64,000 bases of DNA from Giardia intestinalis (lineage: Eukaryota): the NCBI GenBank assembly GCA_000002435.2, contig CM018789.1; one strand, written 5' to 3'. The notes beneath the pieces are model-generated. The model saw only the letters and a program-made list of their open reading frames with translations. It made no database searches and was not told the DNA's origin. Each line of letters opens with the position of its first letter. Position 1 is the stretch's first letter. The translations under genes were made by a program, and so were the position numbers. This document shows positions 17,890 to 29,443 of this stretch, in pieces.

Positions 17890-20800
17890 TCATGCCTTTT
17901 CACGCTTATCCGCGGGGAAGTTCATCAGGACCATTCCAGCAGTGTTCATTTGGGCGGCTAAAGAGCTCTTTGGCCCCTTTCCTATAGTGATAGTGTTTAG
18001 ATCCTCCTGGATCTCCTCCATTTGGTTGGAAAAGTTGACACTCTTCTTGGGCTGAGGTTCGGCCCCCGCTGCAAATCTAGAGGTCTGCTTTACCGCAGAT
18101 TTAACATGTATTGGAGACTGAAACATCCAATTGTGCGGCTGATTAGGAGGCACTGGGCTTACTTTTGTATCGACAGGGGTGGAAGCGCGAGGTTTTTGCC
18201 AAGGAGGGGGATTTTGCAGCTGTACTGGATGTGTCCGAGCGTTATTCTGTATGGTGTTTGCTGCATTGTACGAGTTGACTGGCTGAGGCCGTTGTCTAGC
18301 CACAGACGCAACAGAGACTCCTCTCTGTGCGGATTTAAAGGGCGGTCTCTTGATCGGGATCCCAACAGCCTTATTGTATTGCTTAGCCGGAACCTGGGCC
18401 TGCGGCAGTGCTACAGGCTGCTCGGTAAATAGGTATCCCAAAGGCTCAGAACCATGGATGGGTGCGTGACCCTGGGGCTGATCAGATTGTAGCTGCATAT
18501 TGTACCCGTCCCCAAATTGTCGCGTCTGGATAGGCCCCATGCTTCTGCCAGCCCTCTTCAGCAAGAAAAGAGGCTGTGTTGCGTCCAGAGGCTGCTTCTC
18601 GATTTCTTCGTACTTTGGTATGTACAAAACGTCTGCGGCTCCCAGACCACACTCATCTTCGTCTGGGTCGTGACTTTCCAGGCGGGTGTAAGTAAGAAAT
18701 GATCTGTTCATCGGATTCTTAGTGCTGTAGAGCTCGTTTGCAGCAATAGCCTCCTCGGTTAGATTGTAAGGCAAGTGAGCCTGCGGATCCAGGCTAAACT
18801 GGCAAGCTGCAAGCAGCGTCCCCGACCTCATGCTTAGAGAGAGACCGGTCGTTCGCGAGAGGACTTCCTCGTTGTTCACGTTTATTGGGCGGAGACAAAA
18901 AGGAATCTTGGCCTCCAACTCAGTAATTCTATACACAAGCCCGTCAAGGTTCTTCTTGTTATCAGTGTCGATTACGGTCAGTGTTTGTAAGAACCGCAAC
19001 GCCTTTTTAGTATCATGGGATATAAGAAATGCCAGGAGATAGGGGTAGAACTCATCGTGATGTAGACAGAAGGCGGTTATGGCCGAGACTTCTGCTTTGG
19101 TGATGGGAGAGTAATTGATCAGCTTGCAATAAATTGGCACTGTTCCGTGAGTAGCCTTCCTTTTGTCCGTAGTTTCTTCGAGCTCATTGAGACACCGTAA
19201 TGACTGCCCAAGACTGGTATTTGCAGCTGACTCCCTATCTACTGTCAATTCCTCCAGATCAAGAGTGTTAGAGGGCATGTTATCAAACCTGCGTCGGCAG
19301 TTGGACCTCCCCACGATGCGCATTGTCTCTTGAAGCACTGATCTGGCCATATCTGGCTCCACATCACTCCCTAAGGAAGAGACAAGATGAAGCTCATCAT
19401 AAAACTCTTCAATCCGGTAATTATTTGTTGCTAACTCTGAAAATATGTAGGCAAGCCGCAGACCTAGACAGCGATCACTACAGAAGCTGGTGTCATTAGA
19501 AACAATTCCGTTAAAGTCTCTACGCAACTGATAAATCGCTCGTGACATCTGCTGGTTAATAGAGGTCTCGACAATGCGCTTGTGCTCCGCACTATGAATC
19601 CCAGGAGAGGGCTCTGTGAGGCTAATAAACACAGAGGACATGATACACGAACGCATGATTAGCTCAGTCCTGGCTACTCCTGGATGCACGGGCCAAAGCA
19701 GAGTATTGTGGAGCCCATCGGAGTACTCCATGGATGAGAAGGCCAGTGGCCGTGCAAGAGAGATCAACCCTTTGAGGAGCGACAGATGGCAGAGCCTTCC
19801 TGCCCACTGCTTAGAGCTCTTTTCCACGTCATCCCTGCTTATTGTATAGAACCCAGCATCTGTACTAATCGCTCCAGCGTAGGGCAGGTAGCTCAATGCA
19901 TGGAAGAGCAGAAGCCTGAGACTCCGCCGCGTTGTGTCGCTCAAGGCCATGCTCGAGGAGAGCAACTGGATACCTATGAAGTCCCCCTCGCCAGGCACCT
20001 GCATCAGTTGGTTAAGATAGATTGTGTCTTCAGACAAAGAAACGTCTTCGATTTCCCGGTCAATAGGGCCGCAGTATCCCATATCGACAGCAAACAAAAT
20101 GCGGGCTGATAGATAGATGCAGCGAGCATAGTATTCCACCGCCTTGGAGTGCTTTTCGTCTGTGTATCCAAGCACGCCGTCATCCCCACCGCAACTTATT
20201 TTTGCAGCCTGGAGAATAAAGGGCCTGAGATCTGTCCCCATGAAGCAAAGCGACATGCAGGCATCCATACATGCCTTTGGCGTTTCCCCATTCACAAGTA
20301 GGGCGTACACAATGAAGATCCTGCACCCGTGGATCCCAGCCTCCTTCAGCAAAGCAGTTCTAGGGTCTATTGTCTCAAAGGAGAAGCTGTTGCTGTGAGA
20401 GGTCGACGAGTTAATATCTTCTTGTAGAAGAGCCTTTAACGCGTCCACTATTGTCATGCGCGTAAAGCCGGGCCTCCGCTTTCTATAATCTACCCCTGGC
20501 CTCTCCCCAGACAAGACGAGCTGAGTATAGAACTGCACAAGAGACCAGATTGCTGTGTTGCCCACCATATTATGTGCTGCGTAAACAGACGAAAAATCCT
20601 GTATATCCCTGTACGGGTTTCCTTCTATGCTCTTCATTGTCTCATCGACAGTATAATAACCAAACTCATGTGTGTATAGCATGTTGGGGCTCTTGCTCTC
20701 GTCTGCCACGCTCTTCCTAAGGCTACGAAGCATCATGGAGTAGGCGTGGACGGTGCAATTAAAAAATACTTCATTATCGTCATCACGAGCTGCAGTTGGA

Positions 20801-22875
20801 ATTATGGCCGTACTGTCCACGCCCCCATATACAGTAGAGGCATCCGCACAGGTGGCGAGGTGCTTTGTCTTCGTATAATTCAAGATTGTTGCTATCCTGG
20901 AGAACTTCTGGGAGTGGTTTCTGGATAGGGGGAACGGCACGTTGATGAACGACCGGATGCTTGTTAGATAGTGCATCATGCCCAGCGCACTGCTTGCTGT
21001 CTCAGCGATAATTCTGATGGTAGATGCCTCCGCTCCCAGACTAACGTCTAGTTTCCGGACTCTAAGAAGCGTGTCCACAATTCGCGCAGACGCGTATGTG
21101 ATTGGCTGTAAAAACTTACTCAAGTATGCGAGTGCCTCATACTCAGTATCAGCGTTACTGTCCAACTTTTTAGCAAGACAATTCAGCAGATATAAAGAGT
21201 TTTTGATGATGATAATGCACACATGAATAAGTACACGTATGTTGTTGAATACAAATACGTAGTCTGGATCCGTGCCAAGAATAGCTCCTATTGCTCCGTG
21301 AGCCAGCTTGGCATTGGTGATGTGTTCTCTATGCTCCTTGCGCATGATGGCGCGCTCCAGAACAATGTACAGCTGGCTATAGCGCAGACAGGAAAAGACG
21401 GCAGCGATAGAGTAGAACTCACTATTCTCATATATGTTCGTCGATGGCTTGGCTTCTTCAGGAGCCTTGAGGCATTGCGCTCCTATGAGAATTGCATGAG
21501 AATTTTCCACGCTCATCGCCCCGGGATAGTTCAGAGATGCTAGCTTGCTCGCGGCATGGGCACTTTTTGTGCAAAACAATGTATTCTCTATGCTATCACA
21601 TAGTACTAACACCGCAGATATCCGAATGACCCGCTGGTCATCTTTCAGTGCAGCCATGGAGGTATTGGTGTGGGCTTGGGTCGCTGAGCCACTGGGGCCA
21701 TCTGTGCAGTTTAGCATGTCAAGGAATATGGGATCAAAGATAGCGACGGATGATGCCAATTCGCTTACTGCCTTAGGGGCCTGTGCAAGCTCTGTGAGAG
21801 AAATGTGCGCAGATAGCACAAGCTTGTCGCACTTGACATTTGGATCCATTCTGGAAGGGTCATCATAAAAGATTGGGAGGATGCCAGGTGTCTCCTGTGC
21901 CCCGTGGAGGAACACAGTGGGGACAGAGACAGCAAACGGATTTGTATTTGATCCTGTGAAAAGGATATTTAAAAATTGACCATCTCTGGTGTACGTGTAA
22001 GAAAGCAGTTGAAAATCCACTGAATACTTATTGGTCTTAAGGGGAAACGAAAACATTCCTACCACAAAATGATACGAATCTCCTTGTCGTAGCCGCTTCA
22101 CCACGTATAGTAGACACGTGTAGGCACCTGGTGTTCGAGAGTTTCCGAGAATTGACATGAGAAGGAATGCTCCGTGTTCCACTCGATCAATCAGAGTGAA
22201 CGCTGCAGCAACATCGTGCAGCTGGCCTTCTGTGTTAATTCGCTTGAGAATAGATAGTGTTCTCGTGCTCAAAATAACAGAAGAGCTGTTGTCAAGGGAC
22301 AGCATCAGAGTAGTTCCCATCACAGCCAGCCCTGTGGCCGTTACCTTCTGCTTTGAGTCTGAAGGCAAGATCTGACTGACCTCTTTTAGACCGAAGTCGT
22401 AAGTATCGTGAGCCAAAGTCGCAATGACCAAGAGTGTAGACGATATTCCGAAAAACGCAGATGTCCCACTCTGGGCACGGATGGTGATCAGCCCGCCAGC
22501 TATGTTGTAGGAGCACACATACCGACTCGGTGCACCGTCAGAGATATTAAAGATGAGGATCTGCGAATGGCTATCATTATGTGACTTGGCCACTACAGCC
22601 AGATACTTCTCGCACGAGGAGAGGCACGGCGGGAGAAAGAGAAAGTTCTTCTGTGTTCCTGAAAAAAGACCAGATAAAAAGCTCTTATTTGCAGAAATAA
22701 GCCCCTTGGTAAAATGAGGCTCCATGTCCTCAGTCCATAAAAAAGTTGGTGACTTTGATTTGAGAGAGACTGCAACAAGGGACAGCCCTGAAACAATGTA
22801 TGCTGTATCCCCAGTCTCCGATATCTTTGCAGCTGTTGCCTGGCCGCCTATTCCGAACTCACTCAGGGAAAACAT
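17890..22875 (-). CDS. Large hypothetical protein (1661 aa) with a Q/P/N-rich low-complexity C-terminus
   Basis: 5-kb ORF with ATG start. The N-terminal half is rich in beta-strands, the central part is helical, and the last ~300 aa are proline/glutamine-rich. No diagnostic motif. Confidence 0.8.
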   Translation of the reverse strand: MFSLSEFGIGGQATAAKISETGDTAYIVSGLSLVAVSLKSKSPTFLWTEDMEPHFTKGLISANKSFLSGLFSGTQKNFLFLPPCLSSCEKYLAVVAKSHNDSHSQILIFNISDGAPSRYVCSYNIAGGLITIRAQSGTSAFFGISSTLLVIATLAHDTYDFGLKEVSQILPSDSKQKVTATGLAVMGTTLMLSLDNSSSVILSTRTLSILKRINTEGQLHDVAAAFTLIDRVEHGAFLLMSILGNSRTPGAYTCLLYVVKRLRQGDSYHFVVGMFSFPLKTNKYSVDFQLLSYTYTRDGQFLNILFTGSNTNPFAVSVPTVFLHGAQETPGILPIFYDDPSRMDPNVKCDKLVLSAHISLTELAQAPKAVSELASSVAIFDPIFLDMLNCTDGPSGSATQAHTNTSMAALKDDQRVIRISAVLVLCDSIENTLFCTKSAHAASKLASLNYPGAMSVENSHAILIGAQCLKAPEEAKPSTNIYENSEFYSIAAVFSCLRYSQLYIVLERAIMRKEHREHITNAKLAHGAIGAILGTDPDYVFVFNNIRVLIHVCIIIIKNSLYLLNCLAKKLDSNADTEYEALAYLSKFLQPITYASARIVDTLLRVRKLDVSLGAEASTIRIIAETASSALGMMHYLTSIRSFINVPFPLSRNHSQKFSRIATILNYTKTKHLATCADASTVYGGVDSTAIIPTAARDDDNEVFFNCTVHAYSMMLRSLRKSVADESKSPNMLYTHEFGYYTVDETMKSIEGNPYRDIQDFSSVYAAHNMVGNTAIWSLVQFYTQLVLSGERPGVDYRKRRPGFTRMTIVDALKALLQEDINSSTSHSNSFSFETIDPRTALLKEAGIHGCRIFIVYALLVNGETPKACMDACMSLCFMGTDLRPFILQAAKISCGGDDGVLGYTDEKHSKAVEYYARCIYLSARILFAVDMGYCGPIDREIEDVSLSEDTIYLNQLMQVPGEGDFIGIQLLSSSMALSDTTRRSLRLLLFHALSYLPYAGAISTDAGFYTISRDDVEKSSKQWAGRLCHLSLLKGLISLARPLAFSSMEYSDGLHNTLLWPVHPGVARTELIMRSCIMSSVFISLTEPSPGIHSAEHKRIVETSINQQMSRAIYQLRRDFNGIVSNDTSFCSDRCLGLRLAYIFSELATNNYRIEEFYDELHLVSSLGSDVEPDMARSVLQETMRIVGRSNCRRRFDNMPSNTLDLEELTVDRESAANTSLGQSLRCLNELEETTDKRKATHGTVPIYCKLINYSPITKAEVSAITAFCLHHDEFYPYLLAFLISHDTKKALRFLQTLTVIDTDNKKNLDGLVYRITELEAKIPFCLRPINVNNEEVLSRTTGLSLSMRSGTLLAACQFSLDPQAHLPYNLTEEAIAANELYSTKNPMNRSFLTYTRLESHDPDEDECGLGAADVLYIPKYEEIEKQPLDATQPLFLLKRAGRSMGPIQTRQFGDGYNMQLQSDQPQGHAPIHGSEPLGYLFTEQPVALPQAQVPAKQYNKAVGIPIKRPPFKSAQRGVSVASVARQRPQPVNSYNAANTIQNNARTHPVQLQNPPPWQKPRASTPVDTKVSPVPPNQPHNWMFQSPIHVKSAVKQTSRFAAGAEPQPKKSVNFSNQMEEIQEDLNTITIGKGPKSSLAAQMNTAGMVLMNFPADKREKA

Positions 22876-22892
22876 GGGCCAGATTTTAATTT

Positions 22893-25800
22893 TTATTCTT
22901 TAGAAGACTGCTTTGTAGAGGCGAATGTAAAGGTATGGCTAGCATTGTTCAACACGTTTATGAACGAGAGAGACGTATCAGTGTCCTCCTGGGTCACTAA
23001 TGAAGTGTCGTCCTCTTCGGACTTCTGAGCAGAGCGGCGTTTCTTGACACAGACTATGGCAATGATAGTCATGGAAACTATCAGTGCAACTAGGCCAGCT
23101 GATACCCCGATGGCTATTGGCGTTGTGTTGAGTCTCACCTCGTTCTTGGTGCATATGTTTCCTGGAACCATCAGGGAATATCCTTTATAGCATAAGAGGC
23201 ACTGATCTGGATTATTTGTAGAACAGTATAGACAGTACGGCGTGGTACACTTTGTAGAATACATGCATGTTCCCATAACCGGTCGTTTTTGGGTGTCGAT
23301 ACAACTTGTGCACAGCACTGGGGTGCAGGTCTTGCATTCGCTAGGGCATTGTTGGCATGTTCCCTCAAAGAAGGAAAGATATGTGTTAAGTCCGCACACA
23401 GAACAACGATTTGAATTTCCTGCTTCACAGACCACGCAGTTAGAGAGTGTACAGTATGTCTGATTGGATACCACACATACTCCATCACTATTTGGGCGCA
23501 TGTTCCACTTGTTACAACTGACACAGTAGAAGGGGTCTGACGCTTGGCAGAATTGGCAGTTTGTATTGTCGATGCAGAGAGTACTATAGTCGCAATATCC
23601 AGAAAGAGGCGGGCTTCTTATATTTTTACATCGTAGGCATTGTGTTGAAGAGCTGCACTCAAAGCAATTTGATGGGCACGCGTCGCATCTGTTGAAAGCC
23701 TTGTTGAGCCAGTATCCATTCGTGCAACGGAGGCAGAGAAGCTTTTTGTTGGCACCTTCGTAGCAATGCGTACACTGTTCAATAGAACATGCTCGAAACT
23801 TAATGCAGACGCCACTGGTGGTTGTGACGTAAGAGGCATCCGAGCACACTTCACAAATGCTACTGAGCGTGGGACACGCCATACATCCTGACTTACAGGG
23901 GGTGCACACAGAGTAGGAGTTGTCCAGGGCTCCAGAACTGCACGCAATGCAACGTTTGTCAGATGCCTCAAGACAGGAGGCGCATAGACCTACACTACAT
24001 TCATTTATGAAGAACTGCAGGTCAATCATTCCTGTGTTCCTGCCAACAACCCATGTGGTGTTATAGTCCCAGCACAGGGGAGCTGAGCAAGACACCGCTA
24101 TGAGATCAATGACCTTGTCGGTAATTACAACTGCATATGGAAGTGTGGTGAGTATGGGAAGCGCTGTATTGAAAAAGTTCCACCCGCTGTTTTCATTTAA
24201 CCACCATCCACGCGCTAGGTATGTCGTGGACAGCGTCAAGAACTCCGGGACAATGCTAAATAAATCTGTTTCATCGATACCCGGGTTTGCGGCGACCAGA
24301 ATATTTTCACATTTGGTGCAATGGCTTGCATTCAGCCCTGGGCCGAAGGCTTTGATACTGTACGGTTTGTATCCCGGTTCTGTGTAGGTAAATGTGACAT
24401 TCAACAGAACTCTCGCTGCAGACAGGCCATTCATGTGTCCAAAGTAGACAAAAGATGCCAGTCCATAGTCGGCTTTAAAGCCTGAGCACGACCCTGTAAA
24501 GTTAACGGTGCCTGCGCAGTCTGAGATCAGAACATTATCGGTTATGGCGGCCGCAAAGCCTCCGTAGCGTATCGCGGCTGTGTCATTCCAGGTTGAGCAC
24601 GCAATAGACACGTTCATGAACCACCAGAGGCTCTTCAAGTAATGTACGTTACCAGTTACTGCTCCTGAAGGACCATTGACTGCACCAAGAAAGCTACCAA
24701 ACGTTAAGTTGTGGCTCGTTCTAAAGTTGTAGAGGAAGGAGCGCACAAACACGAACGAGTTGTCAATCAGTGAGTTGTTAGTCCGTGAGTACAGCTGCCC
24801 ACAAAAGCCCCCGATAGTTATGGAGCTCGTAGGCGACACTTGCATTGTAACTATCTTAAACCATGCAAAGCAGTTGGCTATTATGCTATCCACGCTAGTC
24901 CCCACAAAACCGCCAAAGAGATAAAGCGGTGTATTGAACGTGTAATAGTTAATACGCACATATGAGTCTGCTATGCTAGTATCTGAGTTAGCAATAGCAA
25001 CGAAACCGCCAGAGCCGGAGCTTTCTATATAGCTTTGAGTTAAGTTTTCCATGACGACAGCACATTGCTCCACAGTAGTGACACTGGCCGTAGAAACAAA
25101 TCCGCCCACTATGCCAGAAAACAATCCGGTTGTGATATTAACCACTGAGTGTCTCACTAAGACTCCGGCTAGATTAGCAGCAAAGCCACCGATGTACATA
25201 ATGTCTGTGCCCACAGAGAAGCTATAATAGTTTGCTACACACTTGTCGATGACAACACAATGAATGCAATCGGATTGTAAGTTTCCCAGAAATCCGCCTA
25301 TGTATGAATATGTACCAAGATTGGTTAGCTCTACAATATTGGCAGTAACGGTGGAAGACCCCACTGACGCGTAGTGTATGCCAACGAGGCCTCCATAAAC
25401 GCATGGGGACAGCCACTCGCTCCGTACGTAGACCCTGCTGAAGTTTGCACTGCAATTGAGAAGGCTTCTCCCACACTCTCCTGCGACTCCACCCAGGATA
25501 CAAATACTATTCCTGCACTCTATAGATCCATTGAATGATAGCCCACTGATGATAGACGCATCAACGTTTAGTCCTGGTTTTGCGATGTTGCCTATAACTC
25601 CTCCCAGGATAGCTTTGCGGAGCCCGCTGTACCTGATTGTCGCATTGACGGCAACGTTCGATGGCGTAATGTACGACCTGCCTGCCAGTCCCCCGACGGC
25701 AAGAGCTTCAGAGTCGCTATTCATTGGCTTGGTTAGTAGTAAACTTCCGTTGATAGTCACTTTGTACAGACTTGTCGAGTTGAGTATCCCTGCTAGGAGT

Positions 25801-26138
25801 CCTACATTTAGCAGATCCTTTGTGCCTTCGTCTAGAGTAATGTCAAAGACCACGTTCCTAAGTGTTCCATGCACCTCAGTGAAGAGACCCACATTTGTTC
25901 CCAGATTCTGGAACCCTTTAACGGATATCTTGTGTGACTGGCCTATTATGATCCCGTAGAAAGGCGGTAAAGGGGTTAATGGTCCCTGTATATCGATATC
26001 ATTCAACAGCACAAAGAACCCTCGAGGACACTCGCGAATCAGTTCAATATCTGCAGCAGTCCTTAGCTCCAAGCGAAGATTACAGTTCGTAGCTGTACAA
26101 AGGGCGCCGGCAAACAGCAACGGCAGAAAGAGCCCCAT
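22893..26138 (-). CDS. High-cysteine membrane protein (HCMP): signal peptide, GG[FLV]xG-repeat domain, CXXC/EGF-like cysteine-rich domain, TM helix, cytoplasmic tail
   Basis: The track Met at 26237 is a GTG pseudo-start. The real ATG is at 26138 (MGLFLPLLFAGALCTATNC signal peptide), directly preceded by a duplicated AT-rich 12-mer. About 11 GGLAG/GGVIG/GGFVG-type repeats sit in the N-terminal half. The C-terminal ~350 aa carry dense CXXC motifs (CTHC, CLRC, CFEC, CQFC, CVVC, CKTC). The TM span is 'AIGVSAGLVALIVSMTIIAIVCV', and the ~45-aa tail lacks the VSP 'CRGKA' end. Confidence 0.85.
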   Translation of the reverse strand: MGLFLPLLFAGALCTATNCNLRLELRTAADIELIRECPRGFFVLLNDIDIQGPLTPLPPFYGIIIGQSHKISVKGFQNLGTNVGLFTEVHGTLRNVVFDITLDEGTKDLLNVGLLAGILNSTSLYKVTINGSLLLTKPMNSDSEALAVGGLAGRSYITPSNVAVNATIRYSGLRKAILGGVIGNIAKPGLNVDASIISGLSFNGSIECRNSICILGGVAGECGRSLLNCSANFSRVYVRSEWLSPCVYGGLVGIHYASVGSSTVTANIVELTNLGTYSYIGGFLGNLQSDCIHCVVIDKCVANYYSFSVGTDIMYIGGFAANLAGVLVRHSVVNITTGLFSGIVGGFVSTASVTTVEQCAVVMENLTQSYIESSGSGGFVAIANSDTSIADSYVRINYYTFNTPLYLFGGFVGTSVDSIIANCFAWFKIVTMQVSPTSSITIGGFCGQLYSRTNNSLIDNSFVFVRSFLYNFRTSHNLTFGSFLGAVNGPSGAVTGNVHYLKSLWWFMNVSIACSTWNDTAAIRYGGFAAAITDNVLISDCAGTVNFTGSCSGFKADYGLASFVYFGHMNGLSAARVLLNVTFTYTEPGYKPYSIKAFGPGLNASHCTKCENILVAANPGIDETDLFSIVPEFLTLSTTYLARGWWLNENSGWNFFNTALPILTTLPYAVVITDKVIDLIAVSCSAPLCWDYNTTWVVGRNTGMIDLQFFINECSVGLCASCLEASDKRCIACSSGALDNSYSVCTPCKSGCMACPTLSSICEVCSDASYVTTTSGVCIKFRACSIEQCTHCYEGANKKLLCLRCTNGYWLNKAFNRCDACPSNCFECSSSTQCLRCKNIRSPPLSGYCDYSTLCIDNTNCQFCQASDPFYCVSCNKWNMRPNSDGVCVVSNQTYCTLSNCVVCEAGNSNRCSVCGLNTYLSFFEGTCQQCPSECKTCTPVLCTSCIDTQKRPVMGTCMYSTKCTTPYCLYCSTNNPDQCLLCYKGYSLMVPGNICTKNEVRLNTTPIAIGVSAGLVALIVSMTIIAIVCVKKRRSAQKSEEDDTSLVTQEDTDTSLSFINVLNNASHTFTFASTKQSSKE

Positions 26139-26140
26139 TT

Positions 26141-26166
26141 TGATTGCATAAAAGATGATTGCATAA
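26141..26166. repeat. Direct repeat of a 12-mer (TGATTGCATAAA x2, 2-bp spacer) immediately upstream of the HCMP start codon
   Basis: On the coding (minus) strand this reads 'TTTATGCAATCA TC TTTATGCAATCA AAATGGGGCTC', so the repeat sits at -3 to -28 relative to the ATG at 26138. Confidence 0.6.
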
Positions 26167-26233
26167 AGGATTAAGAAAAGATATAAATTCGGCTTAAATA
26201 GAGGGGGGATACGGTTGGTGTCGGAAACCGTGT

Positions 26234-29200
26234 TCACTTAGGAGTGGTGTAGGGCAAGGCAGAACCAGGCGTGCCACAAAAGAACCTCTCTATATGCTTT
26301 TGAATGCTCTGCGGAGAAATTCTGTTATGGGTTTTGAACGCAGAGGCAGTGATTGGAGAGAATTGGCACACGTTGTAGTACTGTTGGACAACGACTAGCA
26401 CATTGTTAAGTACGTAGTCTTGGATTTTTCTTTGAAGAGACGCGGAGGGCACAGTGGCTGTGACATGAGCATCCAAAAGAGGGAGAATCAGACCCTCAAA
26501 TTTTGGTAGGCAAGATGTTAGTGTGGCAGTGATCCTTCTGCTCTTGATGGATGCGTGAGACGCTGGCCTTTGAGTCCCTCCAAGGGTCTCCGTGTCATCT
26601 TGGACTTCAGACGCTGTCCAGGACTCTGGCACACATTCCGTCCCTTCTATGCGAGCAGAGACTTCTCGAGCCTGGTCGAGCACCACTGAGAGCTCACTCA
26701 TTACGACCTTGGTAATTACATGACTATTTCGTTCGTGCCACTTGTCATAGACATGTTGCAAATCACTTATAAGGCGGCGCAGATCAAGCGCAACAAGAGC
26801 TGGCTTCCATATCATTTCATAGTACTTGGCAACTAAATTATCTACTTGCTTGCGTATAAATCTCGAATACTCGTGTGAAACAAGGCTACGCAAGGGTCCG
26901 TTGTCGGAACTGACAGCTTCAGAAAGGTAGTTCAGGTTGTTGAGCTTAAATAGGTAGCTGTTCACCAGGCCCTTGGGTGGTTGAGTGCGGTACAAAAGAA
27001 TGCACGACAAATAGTAGAGCTTCTGTTCGAGAACGGCCGTCTTCAGACTCTCAGACCCTGAGGGGAAGAGGTAGTCCTGGAGAACAAATTCTGCCCCACT
27101 GTCCACGAATGTGGTGGCTGAAAAGCCTGTAGAAGTGCAGACCTGATTGACATTGCCATTATGCGGGGCAGTATCCTCTATGGATGCATTGGCAAGGAGT
27201 GCAGGAGAGAGCGCCTGAGCCACTTTCACGATATCTGAGCAAAGAGAGATGCTCTTCGAGTAGAGACCCTGCTGATTGAGCCAAAGAATGATATTTGGTA
27301 ATTCTGAGATTATATTAATGCTGTCTGTACGTGTTGGAATGACGAAGAGCGTTTCTTCAAAGGCAGTAAGCACCTCCTTACTCTTGAGAGCGACACAGAT
27401 CACTAACAGTAGAAAGTCATGTCTGAGGCTATCAAATGTAGAGAGATTAAGGTCTGACTTAGTGTATTGATAGTATAGGAGCTGGTCTAAGAAGTTTCGC
27501 TGATTGAGACTACAAGATACGACGCTACTAGAGAGAGGACCAAGCATGTCAATGATGGCTGTGTAGAGCTTTGGCAAAGACGTGAAGAGATCCCCATGAA
27601 CTATGTTGTTGATGGCATCGAATGGAATGTTCCACGTGAACTTACTAGCAGTAGAACTGTCGGTGTCCACAGTGCCCTGGGAAGTCATCAAGAGAGTACC
27701 ATTCATTCCCATGCCGTTTATAAATGAGCTCTCACTGTCGTAAACAGTGGTCTCCTTCCCTATAGCCTGAGCAACAAGCTTGCTCGGCGCGTCAGTCATC
27801 GGCAAGCCACCAAGAGAAAAGCTGAGTATTTCCGTGTAGTTAGTCAAGAAAACAATAGGTATCATGGCGTGTAATACTTGTAGTATATCAAGAGTCTCGA
27901 AGGTTAAGCGCTTAGTGTCAATGTTAGAAATCAGCCCAAGACACACTTGGCAGACATATTGAAGAACTGGCGTGGCAATATACGAATAGCAGACGTCCAT
28001 TAGCCTACATGCGCTTTCTACTAGAGGCTTGCTATCGGCTATTAGCCCTGAGCTAAAGGGTGTCGCGTCACCGCAGTAGTGGGAAAGCATCAAGTTAATG
28101 AACATGACAAGCTGTTCACGCTCGTCCAAAAGCATAGACAAGACGTACACAAAATAGTAGTAAAATGGATGTGATTCCTGCTTATAAAGAGCAGGCGGTG
28201 GTGATGAAGCAGGCCCGTCTTCGATGGCCTTGATGTAGTCTGACCTGTTGAAAGAGGCCACACCCTCTTTGAGCTTTGCTCGGTGTAAGTGTGCAAGTAG
28301 GCGCAACGGCACAGAGAGTTGTGTGTCCCCACGGATTGGTGAGTCATGAATAGGTGGGATGGGCTGAGTATCGTTGAATAATAGATAGTCCTTTAGATCC
28401 CTGCTGTTCTTAATTTTCAAGGTATCAGGAAGCTTCTTCAAGAAGTCAAGGATTGCTATCAGAAGGGTCTCAGTCCTCAGTTTAGAAGTATCCATGGCGG
28501 GTACACCTTTTAGTTTGGAGTAGGCTCTTGACTTGAGAACTCCGTAAGATGATACGATACTAGAGCACACACGTAGTAGAAAGTCTATGCGCTGATTCAT
28601 GAACTCTAAAAAGGCGTCCTTGAAGGTGCCAGGAGATGCCGGAGATGCTATAAGGGCATCAAACAGAGCTAGAAACGAGGAATTTAGTGCTGAAGGTCGT
28701 CCATTGTCATAAATGGTGTTTGCAACTTGAGCACTGGGAGAGGCGTCCAGGGATGCTGCAAGGGTTATATGCTTCAGGAGATAATAGAGAGGCGTGTTTG
28801 GAAGAAGCCGCTCGACAAAGTCGGCAAACATCTGCACATGGAATCGCAATAACGAGTGGAGTTCTAGGGCTACCTTACCAGCTCCTTGTGTTACAAGAGA
28901 AGTTGTCCGCGAAAGGCCTGAATTTGAAAGCAAAACACCGCTTGCTGATCCTTCGACGAACACTAGTATATCTCGGCGCTGAATATAGAACCGGTGTGTC
29001 TTTGTGGCTATTAGTCGTTTAATAGCAAATAGACTCTGGTCGATACCTTGCTGGATCTCTCCCAGCAGCTCTGTGCTGCAGTCTGCAAAAGTCTCATGAA
29101 TAAATTTCCTCCCCTTCAGCATGGCTGCAATATTCTGGCCAAGGTTGGACTGGTCCACCTCTGTGGGATTCTGACTCTGCGAAATAGTTGCAATGAAGTT

Positions 29201-29443
29201 CAGCGCTTTGCGTATCTCTGCGACGCATGCATTATATGCCTTTGCTTCTTTTTCCAACGCAAGGATGTTAAGCACTTCGTGGCCTGCAGAGTGCGCTGGG
29301 TCCTGGTCTGCTCCGGGTGGATCTAAAATGTCCAACTGACTTTCTAATTTGGAAGCAATATCCAGCATTGATGAGAACAGCCCACGCTGTTGTTCAATGG
29401 TCGCAGTTATCCAGGACAGGAGGCCTGGAAGACTAGTACTCAT
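26234..29443 (-). CDS. Large hypothetical alpha-helical protein (1069 aa)
   Basis: 3.2-kb ORF with ATG start; helical repeat-like composition. Its TGA stop (26236-26234) abuts the downstream HCMP region. Confidence 0.75.
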   Translation of the reverse strand: MSTSLPGLLSWITATIEQQRGLFSSMLDIASKLESQLDILDPPGADQDPAHSAGHEVLNILALEKEAKAYNACVAEIRKALNFIATISQSQNPTEVDQSNLGQNIAAMLKGRKFIHETFADCSTELLGEIQQGIDQSLFAIKRLIATKTHRFYIQRRDILVFVEGSASGVLLSNSGLSRTTSLVTQGAGKVALELHSLLRFHVQMFADFVERLLPNTPLYYLLKHITLAASLDASPSAQVANTIYDNGRPSALNSSFLALFDALIASPASPGTFKDAFLEFMNQRIDFLLRVCSSIVSSYGVLKSRAYSKLKGVPAMDTSKLRTETLLIAILDFLKKLPDTLKIKNSRDLKDYLLFNDTQPIPPIHDSPIRGDTQLSVPLRLLAHLHRAKLKEGVASFNRSDYIKAIEDGPASSPPPALYKQESHPFYYYFVYVLSMLLDEREQLVMFINLMLSHYCGDATPFSSGLIADSKPLVESACRLMDVCYSYIATPVLQYVCQVCLGLISNIDTKRLTFETLDILQVLHAMIPIVFLTNYTEILSFSLGGLPMTDAPSKLVAQAIGKETTVYDSESSFINGMGMNGTLLMTSQGTVDTDSSTASKFTWNIPFDAINNIVHGDLFTSLPKLYTAIIDMLGPLSSSVVSCSLNQRNFLDQLLYYQYTKSDLNLSTFDSLRHDFLLLVICVALKSKEVLTAFEETLFVIPTRTDSINIISELPNIILWLNQQGLYSKSISLCSDIVKVAQALSPALLANASIEDTAPHNGNVNQVCTSTGFSATTFVDSGAEFVLQDYLFPSGSESLKTAVLEQKLYYLSCILLYRTQPPKGLVNSYLFKLNNLNYLSEAVSSDNGPLRSLVSHEYSRFIRKQVDNLVAKYYEMIWKPALVALDLRRLISDLQHVYDKWHERNSHVITKVVMSELSVVLDQAREVSARIEGTECVPESWTASEVQDDTETLGGTQRPASHASIKSRRITATLTSCLPKFEGLILPLLDAHVTATVPSASLQRKIQDYVLNNVLVVVQQYYNVCQFSPITASAFKTHNRISPQSIQKHIERFFCGTPGSALPYTTPK

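Follow-up and report, generated by a model that had tools for sequence, protein, structure and literature searches.

GL50803_7748 (22893..26138, minus strand; 1081 amino acids plus stop) lies in a 64,000-nucleotide stretch of Giardia intestinalis DNA, hereafter the window, and quite likely encodes a conserved, non-variant surface protein in which a GLUG-type beta-helix is carried on a cysteine-rich stalk, with a core promoter of its own and a young duplication upstream. The window derives from strain WB clone C6, with the flanking open reading frames (ORFs) matching GL50803_007747 (17890-22875, minus strand) and GL50803_007751 (26234-29443, minus strand) exactly. Translated from the ATG at 26138, the product, a predicted type I membrane protein, is an exact match of the 1081-residue WB entry XP_001709051.2 / KAE8301864.1, named “High cysteine membrane protein” (HCMP), and the supplements of PMC7461913 list the gene with the same length on chr1. 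In the proposed architecture, a signal peptide would be followed by a beta-helix of ~580 residues and roughly 15 coils, a disulfide-rich CXXC stalk of ~290 residues, one transmembrane helix, and a conserved, disordered tail of 50 residues.

Giardia surface biology is dominated by the hypervariable variant-specific surface proteins (VSPs), and conserved exposed proteins, which are less studied, are natural candidates for attachment factors, receptors and invariant antigens. For GL50803_7748, the HCMP or VSP label hides the two thirds of the ectodomain that are not cysteine-rich. The confidently modelled GLUG helix of this gene and its paralogs provides this uncharacterised HCMP subgroup with a concrete structural hypothesis and an expressible domain (aa 20-712), and it makes the gut parasite a candidate for the capture of a bacterial domain.

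Predicted N-terminal beta-helix and its relatives

The preliminary description of this locus had reported about 11 GG-centred units in a cysteine-poor N-terminal region with many N-glycosylation sequons, and these features were recovered exactly as listed. The protein contains 11 GG dipeptides, at aa 149, 179, 216, 249, 281, 317, 345, 377, 409, 443 and 526, and all of them sit within GG[LVF]x[GAS] motifs, which read in order GGLAG, GGVIG, GGVAG, GGLVG, GGFLG, GGFAA, GGFVS, GGFVA, GGFVG, GGFCG and GGFAA (aa 149-530). The motifs are spaced 28-37 residues apart, except for one 83-residue gap that contains the degenerate sequence FGSFLG. In 2000 shuffles of aa 1-705, the pattern GG[LVFI]x[GAS] occurred 0.61 times on average and at most five times, compared with the 11 occurrences observed. 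Cysteine accounts for 2.9% of aa 1-712 (21 residues), and 16 of the 19 N-glycosylation sequons fall within aa 20-712.

The same region had been described as beta-helix-like, and structure prediction agrees, returning a parallel beta-helix rather than a disordered or non-solenoid fold. Using a 22-sequence alignment, AlphaFold2 produced an all-beta model of regular three- or four-strand coils, with a mean predicted local distance difference test (pLDDT) of 83.6 and a predicted template modelling score (pTM) of 0.86. Short strands follow one another in regular succession from aa ~60 to 585, forming roughly 15 coils, and each GG motif ends the first strand of its coil; the GG[LVF]xG motif would represent a tight turn after that strand. 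The predicted fold is a right-handed parallel beta-helix closest to the solved members of the GLUG/M26_N family. We divide it into an N-cap (aa ~22-110) and ~15 coils (aa ~86-585), 11 of which carry the canonical GG[LVF]x[GAS] turn (24339..26081, minus strand). A C-terminal cap and linker follow (aa 601-712; 24003..24338, minus strand), with a CxxxxCWDY junction and a conserved W..(5-8)..P.L..LPY motif, the latter aligning with the end of the bacterial module and with all Giardia paralogs; model confidence is lower in this segment (pLDDT 45-79).

Relatives of the domain were recovered by exhaustive searching. A word-indexed protein search with the full-length protein returned orthologs only, and the paralogs and bacterial relatives emerged from phmmer and profile searches. 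Against 1.84 billion (1.84e9) representative sequences, phmmer with aa 20-700 retrieved 33 proteins, comprising Giardia paralogs and Giardia muris “HCMPs” of similar length, with the remainder being cysteine-free or cysteine-poor bacterial surface proteins. A single Giardia domain reached the bacterial proteins at E-values of 7e-19 to 1e-4, and a hidden Markov model (HMM) built from 12 Giardia-family domains only reached them at 1e-108 to 1e-13 (Z = 1.8e9). The Pfam domains found on these bacterial relatives include Glug (PF07581), Peptidase_M26_N (PF05342), Flg_new, BACON, Big_3_5 and similar families. A mixed profile retrieved 111 proteins, most of them positive for PF07581 (or PF05342), and, in the N-cap and first coils, it aligned with three PDB chains of the Streptococcus pneumoniae IgA1 protease (6xjb, 6xja and 7jgj; E 3e-9). 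Within the alignment, Glug was matched in 14 of the 22 domains.

Both ends of the bacterial module are preserved in the alignment. The N-cap pattern kept from the bacterial module reads I.T..DL..I...P.G.F.L..DI.....FTPI..F.G...G..H.I.......N.GLF....G...N, and the C-cap retains W.......P.L. The N-cap can be aligned column by column with 10 bacterial domains, among which F60, G62 and G149 are invariant. Together with the structural model, these results identify the N-terminal region as a putative right-handed parallel beta-helix of the bacterial GLUG-motif / Peptidase_M26_N type.

Among bacterial proteins, the Giardia domain is matched best by P0054 (single-sequence E 7e-19, Giardia-only HMM E 6e-108), a cysteine-free protein of 4043 residues encoded on a 195-kb Logan/ENA contig; it carries at least nine tandem modules of N-cap and GLUG repeats. 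Bacterial GLUG proteins such as BACOVA_03286 of Bacteroides ovatus (PF07581; PDB 3n6z) come from prokaryotic rather than eukaryotic hosts, and the Giardia helix, with ~15 coils, is longer. The fusion partners also differ: Flg_new, BACON, SLH and Big domains accompany the bacterial modules, whereas in GL50803_7748 the helix is joined to a CXXC stalk, a transmembrane segment and a cytoplasmic tail.

A different kind of beta-helix had been brought to mind by the GG repeats, namely that of the chlamydial Pmp proteins. Identification of the domain as a Pmp-like (chlamydial or autotransporter passenger) beta-helix adhesin is scarcely credible and was rejected, as none of the 11 motifs reads GGA[ILV], no Chlam_PMP (PF02415) match appears among the Pfam families listed at E<=10, and the protein ends in a transmembrane helix and a disordered tail instead of a beta-barrel.

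Paralogs with the same architecture are XP_001705350.1 (1111 aa), XP_001708828.1 (1071 aa), a 1806-residue “CXC-rich/GLUG motif protein” of assemblage B, and the G. muris proteins TNJ27234.1, TNJ26536.1 and TNJ30651.1. They share with GL50803_7748 the signal peptide, GLUG helix, cap, CWDY junction, invariant cysteine scaffold and transmembrane segment, and they differ from it in that identity is only 22-30%, the tails are dissimilar, and their promoters lack the 12-mer discussed below. The 1806-residue protein (P0055 / P0101) has a pair of GLUG helices (~aa 17-425 and 1012-1667), after which come a short CXXC block and a transmembrane segment; this implies that module duplication occurred within the family.

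The best non-orthologous full-length relatives of the same architecture are two proteins of 1126 and 1132 residues (P0083 / P0088) from ENA/Logan contigs of ~18 kb, with 27% identity to GL50803_7748 over the helix and 35% over the stalk; they could come from another Giardia species or a close diplomonad. A further pair of genes, paralogous to each other and divergently oriented, occurs on contig 36450 of Logan SRR31929897 (GC content 50.6%), at L010:642-4232 (minus strand) and L010:6001-9594 (plus strand). Their products, of 1196 and 1197 residues and 35% mutual identity, both combine a signal peptide, a GLUG beta-helix, an EGF_Teneurin-like cysteine-rich region, a transmembrane segment and a short tail.

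Stalk, membrane anchor and class membership

Beyond the helix, the cysteine-rich stalk (aa 713-1000; 23139..24002, minus strand) contains 48 cysteines, with CXXC-type repeats. Cysteine content reaches 16.7% here, compared with 6.5% for the whole protein. Aligned across the Giardia paralogs, including those of G. muris, the stalk shows 48 invariant columns, nearly all of them cysteine. An AlphaFold2 model of the C-terminal half, of moderate confidence (pLDDT 66.7), consists of serial beta-hairpin modules (pLDDT about 65-88), a long transmembrane helix and a disordered tail. The preliminary description had placed an EGF-like CXXC block before a transmembrane helix; the block and the helix are present, but “EGF-like” describes a resemblance without significant HMM or fold support. 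Foldseek returned laminin-EGF, furin-like, EGF and TNFR-type modules uniformly for the stalk, all non-significant, and neither a Pfam VSP, EGF or furin match nor a PDB sequence match was obtained.

The transmembrane helix spans ~aa 1006-1031 (23046..23123, minus strand), with the hydrophobic sequence IAIGVSAGLVALIVSMTIIAIVCV, and is modelled as one long helix. The cytoplasmic tail (22896..23045, minus strand) is conserved and predicted to be disordered; it carries the motif TQEDTD(T/A)S(L/M)S...NNAS(H/R)T(F/V)T(F/L)AST(K/R)Q, ends in ...ASTKQSSKE, and shows 67-82% identity across assemblages. An acidic tail of ~45 residues had been reported in place of CRGKA. CRGKA is indeed absent; the tail has 50 residues and an acidic cluster but is not net acidic, with eight acidic and seven basic residues. 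At the other end of the protein, the hydrophobic N-terminus evident in the sequence gives a predicted signal peptide (~aa 1-17, MGLFLPLLFAGALCTAT; 26088..26138, minus strand), which appears as a low-confidence helix in the model and is the least conserved segment among orthologs; its cleavage and cleavage site are predictions from the sequence. Taken together, these elements point to a type I surface glycoprotein, with topology and surface exposure deduced from the predicted features.

In keeping with the earlier view that this is not a classical VSP, the protein contains 21 CXXC motifs and lacks CXC, GGCY and CRGKA, and Pfam VSP (PF03302) gave no match at E<=10 with either the full protein or the cysteine-rich block. 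Orthologs are single-copy in every assemblage sampled and, in all contigs recovered, lie in synteny between the orthologs of 7751 and 7747. Pairwise ratios of nonsynonymous to synonymous substitution (dN/dS) relative to WB were 0.10-0.14 for the helix, 0.08-0.17 for the cap and linker, ~0.08 for the stalk and 0.12-0.26 for the tail, with synonymous sites (dS) saturated among the orthologs compared. Across six sequences, 68 of 70 cysteines, 14 of 19 sequons and 10 of 11 GG pairs are kept. GL50803_7748 is therefore conserved, non-variant and under purifying selection, the opposite of VSP behaviour.

These data bear directly on the idea that the gene is one of the variable VSPs, with a part in antigenic variation. 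That idea draws on the CXXC-rich ectodomain segment and C-terminal transmembrane helix, and on older annotations of the gene or its orthologs as “VSP, putative” or “Variant-specific surface protein”. Since the syntenic orthologs show dN/dS near 0.1, the gene is not a variable VSP; with CRGKA and PF03302 absent and the 719-residue VSP model being a truncated call, VSP identity was rejected, and we regard it as extremely unlikely.

Assignment to the HCMPs depends on the definition used. As originally defined, HCMPs are type I proteins of at least 400 residues with at least 20 CxxC/CxC motifs, no CRGKA and at least 10% cysteine (Davids et al. 2006, PMC1762436). GL50803_7748 has 1081 residues, 21 CXXC motifs, no CRGKA, an N-terminal hydrophobic leader and one C-terminal transmembrane helix, but its overall cysteine content lies below 10%, a level exceeded within aa 713-1000 only. 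Current databases apply the HCMP name under a later definition that is less strict. With Giardia HCMPs and VSPs the protein shares a type I layout and a CXXC-rich ectodomain segment, and with HCMPs a non-CRGKA tail longer than that of VSPs; it differs from them in that two thirds of its ectodomain form a cysteine-poor predicted beta-helix and in the lack of CXC or GGCY.

Expression also sets it apart from part of this class. According to RNA-seq data in the supplements of PMC7461913, trophozoite expression is moderate (log counts per million ~6.0), and contact with Caco-2 cells lowers it roughly two-fold (log2 fold change -0.86 to -1.0). Many HCMPs are up-regulated on host-cell contact, whereas GL50803_7748 is mildly down-regulated.

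Proposed origin and function

The GLUG module probably has a bacterial source, and its fusion to a Giardia cassette of cysteine-rich and transmembrane segments would have taken place before G. muris and G. intestinalis diverged. The invariant cysteine scaffold of the stalk, shared with G. muris, implies that the fusion of helix and stalk predates the split of the two species. After the fusion, duplication would have given rise to the small paralog family. In the mature protein, the stalk would hold the beta-helix away from the trophozoite membrane.

The beta-helix probably serves for binding rather than catalysis, in the manner of an adhesin or receptor. One close comparison is the NTD2 beta-helix of Gram-positive M26 IgA1 metalloproteases (S. 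pneumoniae 6xja/6xjb/7jgj; G. haemolysans 7uvk), a related solved domain that acts as a non-catalytic gating domain, with catalysis residing in a separate HExxH domain (PMC9637739). GL50803_7748 differs from these proteases in having no HExxH catalytic domain, G5 or LPXTG, and there is no evidence of IgA binding; the protease helix gates an active site, and the Giardia protein has no such site. IgA1-protease identity was rejected on the absence of HExxH and on the cysteine-rich stalk and transmembrane segment that follow the helix.

A related proposal gives the helix a catalytic role of its own, with mucus or the glycans of bacteria or host as substrate; the enzyme would be a glycoside hydrolase, a polysaccharide lyase or a depolymerase, or the helix would belong to an IgA-cleaving protease. 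We consider this quite improbable, given the non-catalytic role of the M26 helix, the absence of HExxH from GL50803_7748 and the seven other family members checked, and the presence beyond the helix of a cysteine-rich stalk rather than a catalytic domain. To our knowledge, no catalytic activity is known for the GLUG family, which also counts against an enzymatic role.

Several points weigh against our interpretation of GL50803_7748 as a conserved GLUG beta-helix surface protein on a cysteine-rich stalk. Some right-handed beta-helices are enzymes, so that the sequence leaves some room for the catalytic proposal just described. When scanned at full length, the protein gave no useful Pfam or NCBIfam match, and Glug was not reported; with the isolated N-terminal domain, Pfam Glug (PF07581) matched three stretches at E 0.0011 and 19.7 bits, with the family cut-off of 20.5 bits standing 0.8 bit above. 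The Glug model has 28 positions only, which makes single-protein scores inherently marginal. The architecture of the two divergently oriented Logan paralogs indicates that the design of a helix on a cysteine-rich stalk is not confined to Giardia. No searchable paper links GLUG to Giardia or reports on GL50803_7748, and no experiment on the protein was found; surface ligand binding as the function is inferred, as are localisation, topology and ligand. Two papers on HCMP classification mention neither GLUG nor GL50803_7748 in their main text.

The GLUG similarity itself is already recorded in the automated names of the DH and GS orthologs. The gene therefore represents a known domain family within a known Giardia class and not a new system, and no change of paradigm follows.

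A more specific and rather doubtful extension holds that the module was captured from gut bacteria and that members of the small, strongly conserved paralog family serve, without varying, as adhesins or receptors whose ligand is mucosal, for example mucin glycans, secretory IgA or the surface of bacteria. In bacterial proteases, IgA1 is contacted by the nearest solved relatives of the helix. If the extension were true, the family would provide a non-variant, surface-exposed and potentially vaccine-relevant counterpart to the VSP coat.

Gene start and upstream repeat

The open frame extends from 22893 to 26237 (minus strand), and its most upstream codon, a GTG at 26237, overlaps the TGA stop (26234-26236) of the upstream gene, as had been noted. 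The earlier placement of the true start at the ATG at 26138 is borne out: the equivalent Met is the first residue in each of four more divergent orthologs (83, 73, 70 and 69% identical), and the current RefSeq model agrees. The GTG start is used only in ORF-finder-style models (1114 aa) and in the DH (A2) entry ESU38999.1. The interval 26139..26237 (minus strand) is accordingly assigned to the 5' intergenic region, non-coding and open in frame by chance, as indicated by the GTG/TGA overlap and by the ATG starts of the non-A proteins.

The annotation history of the gene is inconsistent. An older RefSeq model (XP_001709051.1) of 719 residues, named “VSP, putative”, was a truncated gene call in which most of the N-terminal domain was cut off; ESU38999.1 has 1114 residues from the GTG start and the name “Putative GLUG motif protein, partial”; and XP_001709051.2 is the 1081-residue “High cysteine membrane protein”. 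The VSP label persists on orthologs and paralogs in other assemblies.

Immediately upstream of the ATG, the preliminary description had identified a perfect direct repeat as a candidate cis element. Two copies of the 12-mer TTTATGCAATCA are indeed present (26141-26152 and 26156-26167), and the window has no third, even at one mismatch; Tandem Repeats Finder reports a 15-nt period with 2.1 copies and 93% matches at 26141-26171. The two copies are not a conserved pair, however: the proximal copy alone is conserved, and the distal one is absent from the non-A orthologs. In the intergenic alignment, the assemblage E ortholog and three more divergent orthologs contain a single 12-mer copy. The distal copy is carried by a 26-nt insertion (26157..26182, minus strand) specific to assemblage A, which appears as a gap in all non-A orthologs and in which 11 nt interrupt a 15-nt tandem copy of ATCTTTTATGCAATC; the exact placement of this indel is ambiguous owing to the repeat. 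Among the contigs compared, it is found in the window and in contig L007, a 99%-identical relative from assemblage A, and in no other.

Conservation is concentrated next to the start codon. In the 20-base stretch that ends at the ATG, the assemblage E ortholog matches the window at 20/20 positions, L001 at 19/20, L003 at 16/20 and L005 at 17/20, and outside these bases the intergenic sequence diverges among orthologs. The conserved start-proximal element ATCTTTTATGCAATCAAA (26139..26156, minus strand), which holds the proximal 12-mer, is a putative core promoter or A-rich initiator. The A/T content at -30 to -1 is 73%, compared with 53-73% at other start-proximal regions in the window, and such an A/T-rich region fits, by analogy, the A-rich initiator described for Giardia genes. 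From sequence comparison, the ~18 nt directly 5' of the ATG are best read as the gene's own A/T-rich core promoter or initiator, and the distal 12-mer as a young slippage duplication (15-nt tandem) in assemblage A and not a conserved regulatory pair.

Alternatively, the duplicated 12-mer might be a functional, dosage-type cis element in which two transcription-factor binding sites alter expression in assemblage A. Two perfect copies 15 nt apart stand immediately 5' of the ATG, the duplication is kept in both the A1 window and contig L007, and the proximal copy is under constraint in all assemblages. The distal copy is missing from all four non-A orthologs compared, which argues that it is dispensable for gene function, and young slippage would produce two perfect copies without any selection. 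The preliminary description had also raised the presence of the 12-mer in other VSP or HCMP 5' flanks, which was not borne out: the motif is not upstream of the two paralogs searched, whose start-proximal sequences are unrelated, and among all orthologous and paralogous loci compared it occurs only at the orthologous position, which makes it unique to this locus within that set. A dosage role is thus unlikely, and a recent slippage duplication beside a conserved core promoter remains our preferred explanation.

Each of the two 12-mers contains an ATG. The two ATGs share a reading frame, which differs from that of the gene, and begin a 33-codon ORF (26063-26164, minus strand; MQSSFMQSKWGSFCRCCLPAPFVQLRTVIFAWS followed by a stop) that runs across the gene's start. 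Unless transcripts begin downstream of both ATGs, this ORF would disturb translation; Giardia 5' untranslated regions are very short, which is consistent with such a start. In the L005 ortholog, the single corresponding ATG reads GTG, and the ATG itself is therefore not conserved.

At the 3' side, only 17 nt (22876-22892) lie between the GL50803_7748 stop codon (22893-22895) and the start of the next gene, GL50803_7747 (ATG at 22875), which means that the 3'-end and polyadenylation signals of the former must overlap the core promoter of the latter.

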